Below, one piece after another: positions 25,748-37,973 of a stretch of 64,000 nucleotides of DNA. Made by a program: the position numbers and the translations under genes. The DNA is from a phage. The notes beneath the pieces were generated by a model. The model searched no databases and was not told where the DNA came from. It was given only the letters and a program-made list of their open reading frames with translations. Where the stretch lies: assembly GCA_026683435.1 (NCBI GenBank), contig GCA_026683435.1_4866.1. One strand, written 5' to 3'. The stretch's first letter is position 1. Each line of letters begins with the position of its first letter.

Positions 25748-25784
25748 AAAAATAAGCTACCACACATATGATCGTGTGGTAGCC
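25744..25784 (-). terminator. hairpin terminator after gene 25798..26193
   Basis: gctaccacac...gtgtggtagc with T-run on minus strand. Confidence 0.6.
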
Positions 25785-25797
25785 TACTCGTACGCTG

Positions 25798-26193
25798 TTA
25801 GTGCAGTGTAGCACTGTGCACAACAGTTAACCCGCGACGTTTGATCTCATCCGCGATGGATTGCAATAGCTTATCGTAACCCACCTTTACAAATTCAGGT
25901 AAGCCACGGTCAACCATCTCCATCTCGGTGATTTCTTCACGGAAAACTTGACAACAGCCTTCTAAATAACGTTTAGCTTCTGTCACGTCATCGACATACC
26001 GCGCATAACTCAGGGCGATCGCGTAACCTTCTGCAATAAACGCATACTTCATGAAGACTTCAGGGTCGAGTTCTTCAACTGCCACGTCTAGACGTGAAGC
26101 GGTCTGACGTACAGAGTTGCGTAATGATTCAGAAAACAGTGTAGTCGTAACCATATCCTGATTAGGAACGGTTTTAGGCATAATCAATTTCAC
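25798..26193 (-). CDS. hypothetical protein (131 aa)
   Basis: ORF track; last gene of the 27537..28022 operon. Confidence 0.6.
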   Translation of the reverse strand: MKLIMPKTVPNQDMVTTTLFSESLRNSVRQTASRLDVAVEELDPEVFMKYAFIAEGYAIALSYARYVDDVTEAKRYLEGCCQVFREEITEMEMVDRGLPEFVKVGYDKLLQSIADEIKRRGLTVVHSATLH

Positions 26194-26204
26194 GAGGACT
26201 CTCC

Positions 26205-26588
26205 TTACGATAACTCGCCCATGTAAATTACTTCATAACCGAACCACTCACCGATTTCAATAAGGTAAGAAACTAGCAAGTGGCGATGACAGAATTTCCC
26301 CGGTGGGCAATAGCACATTAGTACGACCTCGCCCTGGCGGAGAATCTCTATCAACTTATCAGTGTCTTCATCAAACAACCGACTAAGTTTCTGCAGGTAG
26401 CGTTTGGTATACGCAGCTTCTGCGTCGGGGCCTTTGTCAGACTTCTTGTAGTCCATCAGAAAGTCCCAGTCGGGTGCCAAATATTTCAGCCCCGACTTAA
26501 CCGTTATATCCAGCTTTGGCAAATTCCGTTTTTCAGCTATCCGCCACTTCGCCAGTTGGAGCGTCCACAGCTTTACTTGCTTTGGCAT
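26205..26588 (-). CDS. DUF488-family protein
   Basis: C-terminal LMCYCPPGKFCHRHLL and central KYLAPDWDFL...YTKRYLQKL fit the DUF488 pattern. Confidence 0.5.
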   Translation of the reverse strand: MPKQVKLWTLQLAKWRIAEKRNLPKLDITVKSGLKYLAPDWDFLMDYKKSDKGPDAEAAYTKRYLQKLSRLFDEDTDKLIEILRQGEVVLMCYCPPGKFCHRHLLVSYLIEIGEWFGYEVIYMGELS

Positions 26589-27540
26589 TTTTCGCTATCT
26601 CTTTTTCTTTCTCCTGAAGCGCTTTAAAATGTGGCGCATACGCGCACCACTCTTCCGCGGTAAACGATGTGATACATAACCGGTTAGTATCTTCACTTAC
26701 CGTAAAGGTCGTGTGGTTTCTTTCCGGGTCCTTAAAGTTAGCAAAAGCCGGTACGCCCAAACCCATAGCAGAAATAGCACTACCGAGAGCAGAACACCAT
26801 ACCCGTCTGTAAGCATCGTTGATTTTAATCTCCCATCCCACAGACGGTGTAATACCAAGACTACGATAATTCTGCGACTTTGCCGACGGATGGGCATAAA
26901 CGATGAGCACGTTATTCTCACGGTCTATCGCGAATTCGTAGTTGTTGTTGTTACTGACCTGTACCAACCTACGAATATCTTCCGGCAACTCCTGCCACAT
27001 TTCCAGTTTCTCTTTATCCCACGCAGGTGTTAGAAGCGGTGGAACGCGACCGGCATGATCTTGGAAATACATCAATTCGCTATAGAGGTTCTTTAAGCGA
27101 GCGTACTCGTCTAATGTCCAATCTCCCAGCTCTAGACTATTCTCCAACGCATCTAGCTTATTCCAACCAACAACTGCATAGGCGTGGTGCTGTTTGCGCG
27201 TAATACCACACATCAGTTTAGCGAGACCGTTAACAACATTGCCCTGCTGAACCAGAGGCGACCAGCCGTTAGCATATCCAGCGGTAACGACAGGCTGGAA
27301 GTTCTCTTCCCCGAGCACCGCCCATGTAACATGTTCGGTTTGTGCATGGTGTCTATCCATCAACCGTTCAACAATGGCCACGCTACAAAGAATTTCCATG
27401 AAGTTCGCGTTACCTCCATTCCACATGGAGAAATATGCAGGACGGACATGTCGCGCTTCATTGGCCGGTGCTTTGCACAACAGCTGATACATTATCCAGG
27501 TGGAATCCAACCCTGCTGAAAACGAAACAAGCTTTGTCAT
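26533..27540 (-). CDS. PP-loop superfamily ATP pyrophosphatase-like protein
   Basis: Track start 27609 is TTG; ATG at 27540 forms an ATGA overlap with the upstream stop. N-terminus MTKLVSFSAGLDSTW resembles the SGGxDS PP-loop. Confidence 0.4.
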   Translation of the reverse strand: MTKLVSFSAGLDSTWIMYQLLCKAPANEARHVRPAYFSMWNGGNANFMEILCSVAIVERLMDRHHAQTEHVTWAVLGEENFQPVVTAGYANGWSPLVQQGNVVNGLAKLMCGITRKQHHAYAVVGWNKLDALENSLELGDWTLDEYARLKNLYSELMYFQDHAGRVPPLLTPAWDKEKLEMWQELPEDIRRLVQVSNNNNYEFAIDRENNVLIVYAHPSAKSQNYRSLGITPSVGWEIKINDAYRRVWCSALGSAISAMGLGVPAFANFKDPERNHTTFTVSEDTNRLCITSFTAEEWCAYAPHFKALQEKEKEIAKNAKASKAVDAPTGEVADS

Positions 27541-28022
27541 TGTTTCACCGTATGTAGAAATTGATAACGTGGGGTTTCTTCTGCCACAACATCGAAAGAT
27601 GGGATGCAAACAATCTTCCCATATCCATCGAGTTCTATACGTGGAGAAATCGTGATGGTGCCTGCACGCATCACTTCAATCGCTAACGCTTTGAGTGGGC
27701 CGTGTGGTGTGAATTCACCGCGGAGTTGAAAGTAACCATCGACAACGCCATAGCAGACGTTCGATACATAACCGCAAACGCGTACGAGTTCAATACAACG
27801 TATCCGATCAATGGCGGCCTTTACTTCCCCGAACGATTGACACGGTTTAATCACAGGCGCGTCGAATTCACAGAAAACGTGTCCGCGACGTAATGCTAAC
27901 GATATCGTTTCGTCGGGACGGGCCGAGTCTTTAAATTCGTCGCACGGTATAGACAGTATCAGTCCACTCGCGGATGCCACGGTTTGTGCGGGTATTTCCT
28001 TAACCTCGGTTTGTAGTTTCAT
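27537..28022 (-). CDS. Cys-rich hypothetical protein (161 aa)
   Basis: ORF track; translationally coupled to the PP-loop gene. Confidence 0.55.
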   Translation of the reverse strand: MKLQTEVKEIPAQTVASASGLILSIPCDEFKDSARPDETISLALRRGHVFCEFDAPVIKPCQSFGEVKAAIDRIRCIELVRVCGYVSNVCYGVVDGYFQLRGEFTPHGPLKALAIEVMRAGTITISPRIELDGYGKIVCIPSFDVVAEETPRYQFLHTVKQ

Positions 28023-29063: not shown

Positions 29064-29621
29064 TTAAAAATAGTCTTTCTTATTTTCGCTACGCGGGAAC
29101 TCAGCGAAGGGGACGGTTCCGTTTTCATCGAGCTTTGCAACCAGCTCACTGAATTTCATGAACGGTACAAAACGGTTATTGCCGGGGAACACCGAACAGA
29201 TTTTCTCAATGCGCTCAATCGTCCAGTTCCCGTTTTCAGGATCAAGGTCAGGGTTTAATGCGAGGTGCTCAATAAAGGTCGACAGCAGCGACGATTCTCT
29301 ATCTTCGGGAATCACCACTACGCGATGATGACTGTGGGTTGAAACCAAACGATAGTTCGGCCCCGCTAACTTGACGTCTAAGATTTCACCCCCTGCTCGA
29401 ATCAACGTACCGGCGTAAGTGATTTCTTCATGACGCAGGTTATCCTTACCCGTGTTCAGTACGTCCGTTAACATCCGTACGTTTTCCGTTGGGAACCACC
29501 AACCGTGTATGGTGAAGTGTTCTTCTGGGTTACTGGGCATGGGTAGGTTTAAGCCAACGTGGTTCGTGTTGACGTAAATCTGGTCGTCGATAATAACGCC
29601 TGAGATATAAACGTTATTCAT
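29064..29621 (-). CDS. hypothetical protein (185 aa)
   Basis: ORF track; ATGA-type overlap with upstream gene. Confidence 0.6.
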   Translation of the reverse strand: MNNVYISGVIIDDQIYVNTNHVGLNLPMPSNPEEHFTIHGWWFPTENVRMLTDVLNTGKDNLRHEEITYAGTLIRAGGEILDVKLAGPNYRLVSTHSHHRVVVIPEDRESSLLSTFIEHLALNPDLDPENGNWTIERIEKICSVFPGNNRFVPFMKFSELVAKLDENGTVPFAEFPRSENKKDYF

Positions 29622-30142
29622 TTACGCAAATCCTCTCTGTAAACCACGTCGCATTTACGACTGGTCATGGGGTCAATGTACGATACCAACTGAACGATGT
29701 TCTTCGGCTCCATCCCGCAAGCCCAACCACAGATTGCTAAATCCCCTCCGCTACCAAACCCAATAGGTGCACGCAAGTCCAGCTCATCAACCATCAGTAT
29801 TTTGTTGGGTTCTGGCATGTTGGTGTTCGGGTCTTCCAACGACATCATGGAGTTATGCAATTTAAAGGATTTGGTGCGGGTCATTATCAGCAACGTATCG
29901 AATGCAATGAACTGGTTGATAAATGCTTCCGCTGCTTCGCGTGCTTTACGCTTGCCAAATACGAAAGCGTAGACCGCCTTGTCGAGTTTTACACGTTGTT
30001 CGGTAGTTGGGTGGCTGGAACCAAAGAAATACGCTATACGGCCTTTTAAGACCTGTATTTTCGTATCATCAACAACCATTCCATTCAGCAACACTGCGCG
30101 GTCACCAACGAGGTAGTCTTGAGTGAATAATACCGTGGTCAC
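29618..30142 (-). CDS. HslV/proteasome-beta-like Ntn-hydrolase (tentative)
   Basis: GTG start with AAGGAGG SD; N-terminus M-TTVLFTQDYLVGDRAV (compare HslV TTIVSVRRNGHVVIAGDG) and PIGFGSGGDLAI (compare HslV IAIGSGG). Confidence 0.4.
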   Translation of the reverse strand: MTTVLFTQDYLVGDRAVLLNGMVVDDTKIQVLKGRIAYFFGSSHPTTEQRVKLDKAVYAFVFGKRKAREAAEAFINQFIAFDTLLIMTRTKSFKLHNSMMSLEDPNTNMPEPNKILMVDELDLRAPIGFGSGGDLAICGWACGMEPKNIVQLVSYIDPMTSRKCDVVYREDLRK

Positions 30143-33766: not shown

Positions 33767-34585
33767 TTATAAGGTGCCGATTAGCTCTGTCACCGCTTTA
33801 CGTTTATTCGCATCCGCAGACATATATCGACCTACTTGAACTTCGCGCCAAGTAAAGCCGTAATAAATATCGCGTGTGAGTAACGTATCTGCGTTTGACA
33901 GAACGATCTTATTGCCATCGGCAGCTTGTTGTTTTAAAAGTTTCGCTAACTCGCGGTGGTCAGCTTGTGAAAATTCCTTGCTGTGATACTGCGCATGTTT
34001 AGCCGTATCCGAAAGTGGGATGTATGGCGGGTCAGCGTATATCACTGCGTTAGATGGGCACTTATTTAAGATGTCGCGGAAGTCGGCGCAGAGCAGCTCG
34101 ACGTTGGTTTCCGAACAACGTTTCGCCCACGCCAGAATTTCCTCTTCAGGGAAATAGACACCGTTCGGATGTTGACCATAAGGCACGTTAAACCCACCCG
34201 ACTGATTGTATCTGCACAAGCCGTTGTAACCATGACGTGTAAGATACAGGAACATCGCAGCGCGCTGGAGATTAGGTTTCCCCGTGGTTGTCTCGCTGTT
34301 AAATTCCTCGCGTCGTTTCATGTACAGACCGCGGTCCGTCCCATTTGCAAAGAGCGCCTTTGCTTCCAGTATCAACGCCTCCGGACGATCGCGCGCCATG
34401 GTCAATAACTCGATTAAGTCCGGGTTCGTGTCGCCGAGAATATAGTTCGGGTATTTAGTGTTTAAAAACACTGACCCTGCACCCACAAACGGTTCAACGA
34501 AATACTCAGCATCTGGAAGCACCTGTAGCAGCTCGGGAAGTACGCGACTCTTACCACCCATCCATTTTAAAATTGGTCTTATCAC
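33767..34585 (-). CDS. dam: DNA adenine methyltransferase (Dam-type, GATC-specific family)
   Basis: KWMGGKSRVLPEL...VEPFVGAGSVFLNT...YILGDTNPDLIEL and IYADPPYIPLS (DPPY motif) closely match E. coli Dam blocks. Confidence 0.9.
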   Translation of the reverse strand: MIRPILKWMGGKSRVLPELLQVLPDAEYFVEPFVGAGSVFLNTKYPNYILGDTNPDLIELLTMARDRPEALILEAKALFANGTDRGLYMKRREEFNSETTTGKPNLQRAAMFLYLTRHGYNGLCRYNQSGGFNVPYGQHPNGVYFPEEEILAWAKRCSETNVELLCADFRDILNKCPSNAVIYADPPYIPLSDTAKHAQYHSKEFSQADHRELAKLLKQQAADGNKIVLSNADTLLTRDIYYGFTWREVQVGRYMSADANKRKAVTELIGTL

Positions 34586-34591
34586 CCGTTA

Positions 34592-35620
34592 TCATCCTCT
34601 CATGCCAGATTGAAACATATCACTGATAGTCAGCCTGGTTGTAGTCTCCACCGGAATGCTAGGTTCTTCTTTCAGCACTCGATCGGCGCGGTTCCCATTC
34701 ACCCGTTTCCAGCTAATAAGTTCAGGATCGCGTTTCAACGTTAGTGTACGCAGTACCTGCTTGCAACGTAAGATGTTACCGTACAGGTGATTTGCTGGAT
34801 TATTATCAGCAGCTGTTTCAATATAGACTTGGTCGGAATGACGTTGTGCGAAATCGAACAGCGCGCCCATTAGCCGGCGACCAATGCCACGTTTACGATG
34901 CGTAGGTGCAACCGTCAAGCCAGAGAGTTCAACGACGCCTGGCGCGACCAAACGCATTTGGGCAATGCCGACGATATCACGACCGTCTCGCCAAATCGCG
35001 GTTTCCACATTAGCGTGCTGAATTCTTGCTATCACGGTTTCTGCCAAAGGACCAATGTGTGTATAATAGCCACGAATGTCATACCCCAGTTCCTCGCAAA
35101 TTGCACCACTGACCAGATTCAGGATAACGTCTTTGTCGTCCTTGGAAAGTTCTGCGTATGCGTCACCAGAAATAATCTTGATTTCCGATGCAGTTATTAC
35201 TTTATCAAACAGTTTAGAATGACATGCCCAGACGATATCTGAAAGAACAAACCCTTTTTCGACCAGTTTTTGTTCAACATCGCCAGTAGGTGCCGGGCAC
35301 GACATATATTCGAAGCCTGTGTGGTCGAGCACAAGGGCTAAACCAACTTTATCGAATGCCCCAGGTACAAACTCCTCAAAATAGTGACAGGTTAGTGTAG
35401 GGTCACCGTGTCGATAGGTGGCCACTAAATAACCCTCCCAGGTTTCTCTATTCCGTACCACGTAAACAGAATAAGTCTCGTCCTTTAGAAACTCTTTTAG
35501 GCGGCGTGCTCGTACAGTATCGCTACCGACGTTATTTTGGAACTCGGCAGAGCGAATGCTGCTGCGGAACAATTTAGCCACAGTTTTCATTGTAATGCCC
35601 TCAAAAGGTAATGCTGTCAC
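34592..35620 (-). CDS. two-domain protein with C-terminal GNAT acetyltransferase domain
   Basis: GNAT motif A LTVAPTHRKRGIGRRLMGALFDFAQ; start may be GTG at 35620 or ATG at 35590. Confidence 0.65.
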   Translation of the reverse strand: MTALPFEGITMKTVAKLFRSSIRSAEFQNNVGSDTVRARRLKEFLKDETYSVYVVRNRETWEGYLVATYRHGDPTLTCHYFEEFVPGAFDKVGLALVLDHTGFEYMSCPAPTGDVEQKLVEKGFVLSDIVWACHSKLFDKVITASEIKIISGDAYAELSKDDKDVILNLVSGAICEELGYDIRGYYTHIGPLAETVIARIQHANVETAIWRDGRDIVGIAQMRLVAPGVVELSGLTVAPTHRKRGIGRRLMGALFDFAQRHSDQVYIETAADNNPANHLYGNILRCKQVLRTLTLKRDPELISWKRVNGNRADRVLKEEPSIPVETTTRLTISDMFQSGMRG

Positions 35621-37288: not shown

Positions 37289-37912
37289 CTAACCTGCCAG
37301 AATACGTTCAACGATACGCGCGGCTTGTAACGCTATATCGTCGTCAGCCGTAACACGCATCAGCGGGAACTTATCGCCGCCATCTGTGGTGATGTGGAAA
37401 GCAAAACGGTAATGGTCGCGTAAGGCGTCCCAATCGGTCTGTGAGCGCAGATACTTCGCTGTCAGTACCTCATCATCCCAGTTCTTACCTTGTGCCTCTA
37501 CGCGCTTCTTAAAGCGTTCTGTGGCGGTTTCGTAAGATACATCGGTTGCCACGTAAAGCTTTGGTGCGTTAATGTGGTCTAATACCCGCGAACGGAAAAC
37601 TTCCCCTTTACCATCGACGCCCTGGTAGACAATAGTCGATTGACAAAAACGGTCAAAAATAACGACATCGTGCTCTGGTACAACGAGGTCCATCGTGTAT
37701 TGGAAATCCAGACACATCGCTTTAGCAATGCGTTCGTTAGAAGCGTGCTGGATAACCAGAGAACGTGCACTAATACCGGCTTCAGTGGTATTCGTCGGGT
37801 GATTGACGATGATGACATTAACGCCAGCGGAGCGCAACATCGCTTGAATCATTTTCGCGAGTGTTGATTTGCCAGAAAAATCTGGACCATCCAGCGCCAC
37901 TGAGTTTAACAT
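37289..37912 (-). CDS. tmk: thymidylate (dTMP) kinase-like P-loop kinase
   Basis: Walker A DGPDFSGKST; DRFCQSTIVYQG matches the Tmk DR...ST.AYQG block; track start 37954 is GTG, first ATG at 37912. Confidence 0.65.
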   Translation of the reverse strand: MLNSVALDGPDFSGKSTLAKMIQAMLRSAGVNVIIVNHPTNTTEAGISARSLVIQHASNERIAKAMCLDFQYTMDLVVPEHDVVIFDRFCQSTIVYQGVDGKGEVFRSRVLDHINAPKLYVATDVSYETATERFKKRVEAQGKNWDDEVLTAKYLRSQTDWDALRDHYRFAFHITTDGGDKFPLMRVTADDDIALQAARIVERILAG

Positions 37913-37973
37913 TTTATTCTTCCCCAAAAGTTTAATTAATTGTAGTGGTGTCACAATATAGCGAGCATACGTA

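Follow-up and report, generated by a model that had tools for sequence, protein, structure and literature searches.

QueC, Cap9, and QatC appear to be the closest described relatives of a divergent PP-loop protein that is encoded by the second of four tightly packed genes on a stretch of phage DNA of 64,000 nt (contig GCA_026683435.1_4866.1). The whole stretch is called the window here, all positions refer to it, and the genes are numbered 1 to 4 (Table 1). The signature motifs of QueC have been set by mutagenesis, in which Y35 and R99 were essential and an aromatic residue was required at position 131 (PMC13329287). Cap9, the QueC-like ligase of type IV cyclic oligonucleotide-based antiphage signaling systems (CBASS; PDB 9nto_B), is a minimal enzyme of ~185 residues whose gene adjoins a CD-NTase. 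QatC, a component of the QatABCD defense system, is without the canonical QueC motifs, yet a deazaguanine substrate has been proposed for it. Work from 2025–2026 on protein deazaguanylation by Cap9 and QatC in bacterial immunity has given the QueC family a role beyond queuosine precursors; none of the present evidence ties gene 2 to this deazaguanylation.

The window comes from a Seoulvirus-type (SPN3US-like, phiKZ-type) Salmonella jumbo phage, and the 4.2 kb round the cluster are 96–98% identical to SPN3US, SPLA5c, and SEGD1. A sequence-only reading of this DNA had proposed that the four genes form one functional module. We read the cluster as composite, with a probability of about 0.6 for the whole picture. 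Gene 2 would encode a QueC-like adenylating enzyme, gene 3 an independent DUF488 protein, gene 1 an inactive protease paralog, and gene 4 a clade-specific protein, with the PP-loop and DUF488 genes being neighbors by descent and not parts of one machine. A role in nucleic-acid modification or anti-defense, as proposed earlier, is possible.

Fold and family of the gene 2 product

Searched alone, the gene 2 protein gives no significant match in Pfam, NCBIfam, or PDB sequence searches, and it was linked to the PP-loop families only through family profiles and structure. A profile of 41 family sequences matches Cap9 (E 1.8e-5) and QueC (E 2.5e-3), and hhalign aligns the family to Escherichia coli QueC with a probability of 92.8% over 163 columns, the alignment stopping at residue 171. 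Taken one by one, 9 of the 41 relatives match Pfam QueC and 4 match ATP_bind_3 at E ≤ 0.01. The AlphaFold2 model is confident (predicted local distance difference test score [pLDDT] 83, predicted template modeling score 0.85) and takes on a Rossmann-like α/β/α PP-loop fold that can be superimposed on solved PP-loop enzymes. The ATP-binding loop (S8-A9-G10-L11-D12-S13-T14) lies in register with the loops of TilS, QueC, and Cap9 in the alignment. Its G10-L11-D12-S13-T14-W15 stretch is invariant in the 12 full-length members, and distant relatives carry the canonical loop AFSGGLDST or (F/T)SGGLDST. Across the 41 sequences, which diverge down to 14–20% identity, seven residues never vary (G10, S13, Q98, G125, P172, K178, and K221). 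What is observed for gene 2 is thus a PP-loop fold in the predicted model, intact ATP-binding elements (S-A-G-L-D-S, E49, and T171-P172...K178...W182), and purifying selection (ratio of nonsynonymous to synonymous rates, dN/dS, of 0.126 against SPN3US). The earlier assignment to the PP-loop proteins, made from the N-terminal motif, is borne out in both fold and motif. By profile and predicted structure, the gene 2 product is a genuine, highly divergent PP-loop protein whose nearest branch is QueC-like.

The C-terminal domain (residues 186–335) carries the invariant residues K221, Y225, G229, I230, and W236 and has no structural neighbor in the PDB and no known fold. Neither the 12- nor the 41-sequence alignment contains an invariant or near-invariant cysteine. 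The family is small: a set of 5.8 billion sequences yielded 17 clusters, and a set of 1.84 billion yielded 48 representatives at E ≤ 1e-3. All members whose context was examined lie on jumbo-phage genomes or large phage-like contigs. Full-length structural relatives are found in BFVD for the jumbo phages Wellington, Miami, RSF1, YC, and Noxifer. One JGI member and several of the BFVD relatives bear the automatic name “7-cyano-7-deazaguanine synthase,” which is to be corrected, as these relatives fail the QueC signature. Gene 2 belongs to a QueC-like PP-loop lineage that is found on phage genomes and phage-like contigs only, has lost the Zn lid, carries a novel C-terminal domain, and is sometimes misannotated as QueC.

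Relationship between the PP-loop and DUF488 genes

Homologs of the two proteins are distributed differently. By tblastn, the PP-loop protein is found in 68 phage records, comprising SPN3US-like phages, Erwinia jumbo phages, and distant hits in pEa_SNUABM_37/48 and Aeromonas phage AhC3_1. The DUF488 protein is found in 290 records that span phiKZ-like phages of Pseudomonas, Vibrio, Serratia, Klebsiella, and Erwinia. In the SPN3US/Erwinia clade the order PP-loop to DUF488 is kept, at identities of 32–34% for the PP-loop protein and 45–50% for DUF488. The two genes overlap in ChrisDB and Caitlin and are separated by 2.6–2.8 kb of other genes in the loci L009 and L017. This clade is collinear across the entire neighborhood, and the adjacency of the two genes is therefore inherited and not independently recurrent.

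Outside the clade the pair splits. phiKZ (L010:2485-4695) and Noxifer (L020:5145-7784) share a conserved trio of a UvsX-like gene (gp152), DUF488 (gp151), and a gp150-like gene, which hints at a link of DUF488 to recombination or DNA metabolism. No PP-loop homolog is detectable in the Pseudomonas phages, and no gp152-like gene is detectable in the 64-kb window. The possibility that phiKZ gp152 is a hidden PP-loop protein was rejected, as it matches none of the family hidden Markov models (HMMs) and shares 62% identity with the “UvsX” protein of Noxifer. The distant PP-loop homologs (pEa_SNUABM_37, AhC3_1, L024, and L025) have unrelated neighbors and no adjoining DUF488. A conserved small downstream partner was likewise rejected, since the genes of ~127–131 codons that follow several distant homologs are unrelated to one another, to DUF488, and to gene 4. 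Across phiKZ, Noxifer, pEa_SNUABM_37, AhC3_1, and eight metagenomic loci, a conserved PP-loop/DUF488 module does not hold as a general rule. The co-occurrence that had been expected of the pair is thus present in related SPN3US and Erwinia genomes, but phages at large do not keep the two genes as a unit. This weakens the proposal of a single functional module, which has the conserved gene order within the clade on its side and the splitting of the pair beyond it against it.

These distributions bear on a reading in which the two enzymes form a thiolation or base-modification module. The PP-loop protein would adenylate a tRNA or DNA base, and the Cys-bearing DUF488 protein would give sulfur or process the intermediate. 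ThiI, which combines the action of a PP-loop domain with that of a rhodanese domain, provides the precedent, and by this analogy such a module is conceivable but rather unlikely. DUF488 is far commoner than the PP-loop protein and sits beside a UvsX-like gene elsewhere, the distant PP-loop homologs have no DUF488 neighbor, and the pair is interrupted in L009 and L017. Co-occurrence that is confined to one collinear clade is not the obligate partnership of a ThiI-like system. The proteins themselves also argue against it, as the PP-loop family has zero conserved cysteines, unlike the chemistry of ThiI, MnmA, TtuA, NcsA, and LarE. ThiI, TilS, TtuA, and NcsA carry THUMP, TilS-type, or Fe-S/Zn modules, none of which is present in the gene 2 product; in particular, an RNA-binding domain such as THUMP was not found in it.

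A different neighbor is found in a metagenomic phiKZ-like lineage (L014, L016, L018, and L019), in which a PP-loop homolog of 347–379 aa lies beside a thymidylate kinase gene (L014:5001-6897). The PP-loop gene overlaps the start of the kinase gene by 8 nt in L014, L016, and L019 and is separated from it by a gap of 9 nt in L018. In the L014 lineage the PP-loop gene lies ~3 kb downstream of an authentic full-length S80 prohead protease, whereas in the window it follows the truncated protease paralog, and the thymidylate kinase gene is 10 kb off (37289-37954). When the blocks that run from protease to PP-loop gene in the L014 lineage and in SPN3US were compared, matches were confined to the protease and the thymidylate kinase, which did not suffice to establish shared ancestry of the blocks.

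Substrate signature and proposed reaction of gene 2

The QueC signature was checked on gene 2 through the hhalign alignment to E. coli QueC. Three features are kept: the S-A-G-L-D-S loop, E42 (the invariant E49 of gene 2), and the TPL...K165...W block, which corresponds to T171-P172...K178...W182. Four of the six signature elements fail. In YxQxHxxE, the place of Y35 is taken by M39 in gene 2 and by F in the Erwinia clade, while Q37 is replaced by N41 and H39 by G43. VPxRN is aligned with V97-Q98-Q99-G100-N101, so that R99 corresponds to a glycine that is invariant in the 12-sequence alignment. YPDC is aligned with G139-D140-W141-T142, where no conserved YPDC-like motif is present and the loop 132–140 has a pLDDT < 50. 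The C(x)8CxxCxxC Zn site is missing from the family, and in place of the C-terminal lid of QueC (PF06508; PDB 3bl5, 2pg3) stands the 150-residue domain of no known fold.

Cap9 differs from gene 2 in much the same respects. It keeps Y/FxQ(x)5E, RN, YxDC, and the Cys4 Zn site, whereas the gene 2 product lacks the arginine, YxDC, and the Zn cysteines, and at 335 aa it carries an additional C-terminal domain. In contrast to the CD-NTase context of Cap9, gene 2 is phage-encoded among phage genes. QatC is similar to gene 2 in that it has kept the ATP loop, remodeled every substrate motif, and acquired terminal extensions. It has a variant Zn motif, its own motif set, and the partners QatA, QatB, and QatD, whereas the gene 2 family has neither a conserved cysteine nor such neighbors.

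The proposed reaction follows chemistry that is common to PP-loop enzymes. The gene 2 product would bind ATP-Mg, and a carboxylate or carbonyl oxygen of the substrate would attack the α-phosphate, yielding an acyl- or enol-adenylate and pyrophosphate. Subsequently, a nitrogen nucleophile (less likely a sulfur nucleophile) would displace AMP. The substrate pocket would be completed by Q98, Q99, G100, N101, W126, D130, and E133 together with the C-terminal domain (K221 and Y225). With Y35, R99, YPDC, and the Zn lid gone, the substrate would therefore not be 7-carboxy-7-deazaguanine held as QueC holds it, and a deazaguanine substrate is unlikely on these motifs. A nucleobase-like or nucleotide-pool molecule is the most likely substrate class. 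The thymidylate kinase overlap, which is the sole context clue that is independent of SPN3US synteny, points weakly to the nucleotide pool. By keeping the ATP machinery, dropping the Zn lid and the known substrate residues, and gaining a new domain, gene 2 is a candidate for new adenylation chemistry at the phage–host interface, and as genetics exist for SPN3US, the idea is testable there.

Several observations weigh against this composite picture. The overlap of the PP-loop and DUF488 genes is kept at a PP-loop identity of just 32–34%, as might be expected if the two were functionally coupled to some degree in the clade. The thymidylate kinase linkage is limited to a single lineage. The first glycine of SGGxDS is an alanine in the SPN3US clade and the aspartate is a glutamate in some distant members, so that activity is not guaranteed. 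Finally, the case of QatC means that the loss of QueC motifs does not strictly rule out a deazaguanine substrate.

Another reading is a counter-defense function against deazaguanine-dependent immunity. The gene 2 product might disable type IV CBASS or QatABCD by depleting or diverting 7-carboxy-7-deazaguanine or by mimicking Cap9 or QatC, or it might itself conjugate a nucleobase to protein, a proposal to which we give only a slim chance. The catalytic signature of Cap9 and QueC is missing, as is their Zn site, and neither the gene 2 product nor four relatives match PADLOC QatC or Cap9 at E ≤ 1. The neighborhood offers no partner or target candidate, and no other gene of the deazaguanine pathway is annotated in SPN3US: FolE, QueD, QueE, Tgt, and DpdA are all absent from the ~223 kb of annotation read from the 240-kb record. 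Equally long odds attach to gene 2 as a phage-side remodeling of QueC, that is, an ATP-driven ligase that joins a nucleobase-like carboxylate to a protein or nucleotide, or an enzyme that drains the 7-carboxy-7-deazaguanine meant for type IV CBASS or QatABCD. If so, gene 2 would encode a counter-defense enzyme of new chemistry, and the domain that builds its substrate site, the C-terminal one, would be of a kind not seen before.

The PP-loop domain may instead have lost catalysis and serve a structural or regulatory role, which we consider improbable. The Gly-to-Ala and Asp-to-Glu changes in the loop, the loss of all QueC substrate residues, and the lack of a match of the gene 2 product itself to any Pfam model would suit such a pseudoenzyme. 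However, other active enzymes of the superfamily tolerate changes at the second loop position, and the seven residues that are invariant among the 41 sequences, the retained TPL...K165...W block, and the dN/dS ratio speak against a pseudoenzyme. An ordinary QueC, whose preQ0 would serve to modify phage DNA with 7-deazaguanines, as the automatic names would have it, is very hard to credit, since the failed elements include residues that are essential by mutagenesis, the Zn-binding cysteines are missing, none of the pathway genes is annotated in the ~223 kb read of SPN3US, and its radical SAM genes are SPASM-like. A phage-encoded 7-deazaguanine pathway as such was rejected, as FolE, QueD, QueE, and Tgt are missing from this ~223 kb and the two radical SAM genes of SPN3US match SPASM peptide maturases, not QueE.

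DUF488 protein of gene 3

Gene 3 matches Pfam PF22751, the “active DUF488-N3 subclade,” at E 7e-12 (46.1 bits, cut-off 27) and PF04343 at 28.3 bits (cut-off 22.2), which upholds the DUF488 call made from the sequence. The motif CYCPPGKFCHRH occupies residues 92–103, and C92-x-C94-x2-G97-x-F99-C100-H101-R102 is invariant in seven orthologs from SPN3US-like phages, Erwinia phages, phiKZ, and Noxifer. The gene 3 product is accordingly placed in the DUF488-N3a group and predicted to be catalytically intact. DUF488 itself was reportedly assigned to the rhodanese-phosphatase superfamily by Burroughs and Aravind in 2023. DUF4326, which is related to DUF488, belongs to this superfamily and is predicted to process ribose-linked phosphates (PMC9503650).

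phiKZ gp151 is 39% identical to the gene 3 product and has the invariant CxCxxGxFCHR motif in common with it. When gp151 was knocked down with antisense oligomers in phiKZ, the number of plaque-forming units rose about tenfold, and phage transcription at 30 min was strongly changed (PMC12571901). Gene 3 falls within an established Pfam family that has a phenotype in phiKZ. The DUF488 protein most likely acts on its own, and the gene deserves study alone and not as part of the cluster.

The gene 3 product also matches the PADLOC candidate defense components PDC-M45C (E 4e-5) and PDC-M19A (E 1e-3), and DUF488-like domains are therefore used by bacterial defense as well as by phages. In Erwinia phage Kwan (KX397369.1, 116943-117311), a DUF488 match at a distance of ~2.8 kb from the PP-loop homolog is covered by a feature with the label “putative GIY-YIG catalytic domain protein”; this feature is either a fusion or a misannotation.

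Protease paralog of gene 1

The gene 1 product is 98.8% identical to SPN3US gp117, which a study from 2017 presents as a paralog of the true prohead protease gp245 that has diverged extremely and lost its C-terminal part (PMC5694885). In that analysis, Ser126 and Asp144 of gp117 were aligned to the catalytic serine and aspartate, no histidine was aligned, and the HMM–HMM comparison with gp245 gave an E of 3e-17 (PMC5694885). Gene 1 matches phrog_7478 (“head maturation protease”) at E 8e-48 and scores 15.2 bits against Pfam Peptidase_S80, under the cut-off of 23.4. Its pairwise similarity to gp245 and to a metagenomic S80 protease is weak. Compared with SPN3US gp245/phiKZ gp175 (MEROPS S80, 267 aa), the 161-aa product is without the C-terminal part. 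In the more distant homologs in L017 and L009, Ser126 is replaced by Ala and His48 by Gln or Leu, and only Asp144 of these is invariant. A conserved His-Ser-Asp triad was not found across the paralog family when these homologs were compared, so the gene 1 product is probably noncatalytic. The annotation “head maturation protease” should be amended to a truncated paralog without a conserved triad.

Gene 1 had been described as Cys-rich. This is correct by composition (7 cysteines in 161 aa) and misleading as to function, as the protein is a diverged, truncated paralog of the prohead protease. A cysteine cluster or metal-binding site was rejected: just two of the seven cysteines (C51 and C83) are conserved, and gene 1 has no CxxC motif. 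It is of a known kind that has been published already.

Organization of the locus

All four open reading frames (ORFs) were found on the minus strand as the sequence-only reading had given them. Each protein matches a PHROG family (E 1e-46 to 1e-136), and orthologs are annotated in SPN3US and its relatives. The terminator placed after gene 4 was also recovered, as a hairpin with a T-run at 25789..25750. Past this hairpin, the next gene codes for a virion structural protein of the DUF7941 family.

Table 1. Features of the four-gene cluster and its terminator in the 64,000-nt window
Feature	Position	Strand	Description
Gene 1	27537..28022	-	161 aa; truncated S80/T4 gp21-type prohead protease paralog; ortholog of SPN3US gp117 (SPN3US_0117)
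Gene 2	26533..27540	-	335 aa from ATG; N-terminus MTKLVSFSAGLDST; divergent QueC-like PP-loop ATP pyrophosphatase (predicted); SPN3US_0119 ortholog
Gene 2, PP-loop domain	about residues 1-185	-	
Gene 2, C-terminal domain	26536..26985, residues 186-335	-	family-specific; β-sheet and long C-terminal helix
Gene 3	26205..26588	-	127 aa; DUF488-N3a (“active” subclade); ortholog of SPN3US_0120 and phiKZ gp151
Gene 4	25798..26193	-	131 aa; GTG start; SPN3US_0121 ortholog
Intrinsic-terminator-like hairpin	25750..25789	-	17-pair stem with 6 GC pairs, 6-nt loop, T-run tail TTTTGTTTCT; directly after gene 4

The genes probably form a co-transcribed string. Genes 1 and 2 join in an ATGA stop/start overlap, genes 2 and 3 overlap by 56 nt with the start of gene 3 inside gene 2, and gene 4 has a Shine-Dalgarno sequence (AAGGAG) 7 nt ahead of its GTG. 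phiKZ-type phages transcribe with their own RNA polymerases. On the minus strand between gene 1 and the genes upstream, a scan found neither a terminator nor a sigma-70-like promoter, the promoters of the phage polymerases being outside its scope, and the transcription unit may therefore start further upstream than gene 1.

The ATGA coupling of genes 1 and 2 stands in the window but is not universal, as SPN3US has a gene of 110 codons in between. This gene, SPN3US_0118 (L001:8392-8724), is missing from the window and from SPLA5c. Although it has been suggested in print to be the lost C-terminal half of the protease, its product begins MKKVLVLLGALVAPMVAHAADKP, which resembles a signal peptide, and an inserted gene for a putative secreted protein fits better.

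Compared with SPN3US, the dN/dS ratios are about 0.13–0.15 for genes 2–4, and gene 1 has only two differences, both nonsynonymous, which give no ratio. The DNA of gene 2 is 94.1% identical to SPN3US (39 synonymous and 20 nonsynonymous changes), the three flanking genes are 99.2–99.6% identical, and the gene 2 protein allele is 99.7% identical to the version of Escherichia phage EC001. This sharp local mosaic suggests recombination among co-circulating SPN3US-like phages. In several SPFM genome records (LR535901-LR535917), the region was matched only as many short pieces (in some records at least 40), with fragmented, low-coverage PP-loop orthologs, which suggests frameshift-rich assemblies and not true gene decay.

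Gene 4 is a clade-specific small protein. It matches phrog_17719 (E 1e-69) and has no match in Pfam, NCBIfam, or PADLOC. It is limited to the close SPN3US group, being present in L001/L002 and absent from the Erwinia-phage and metagenomic loci, and it is unrelated to phiKZ gp150.

Neighboring genes

The Dam-like gene that had been noted as context is present at 33767..34585 and encodes a D12-class N6-adenine methyltransferase (E 1e-53). Directly after it (33767-35620 for both genes) a 342-aa protein is encoded that has a C-terminal GNAT acetyltransferase domain and ~200 N-terminal residues with no Pfam match.

A gene for an HslV-like peptidase lies upstream of the cluster at 29618-30142, at a distance of 1.6 kb. 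The 2.8-kb insertion that separates the PP-loop gene from DUF488 in L017 includes an AAA+ gene (Pfam AAA_2; L017:6425-8143), and the record of one related Salmonella phage has hslU annotated in the cluster region. These phages may encode a split HslUV-like protease.

The two radical SAM genes of SPN3US are adjacent and lie outside the window (NC_027402.1, 140024-142139; L022:7025-9140). The larger one resembles SPASM peptide maturases of the CXXX-repeat/PapB type (E 1e-32 to 3e-36, under the family cut-offs). A maturase pair of the kind that acts on ribosomally synthesized and post-translationally modified peptides is unusual in a jumbo phage.

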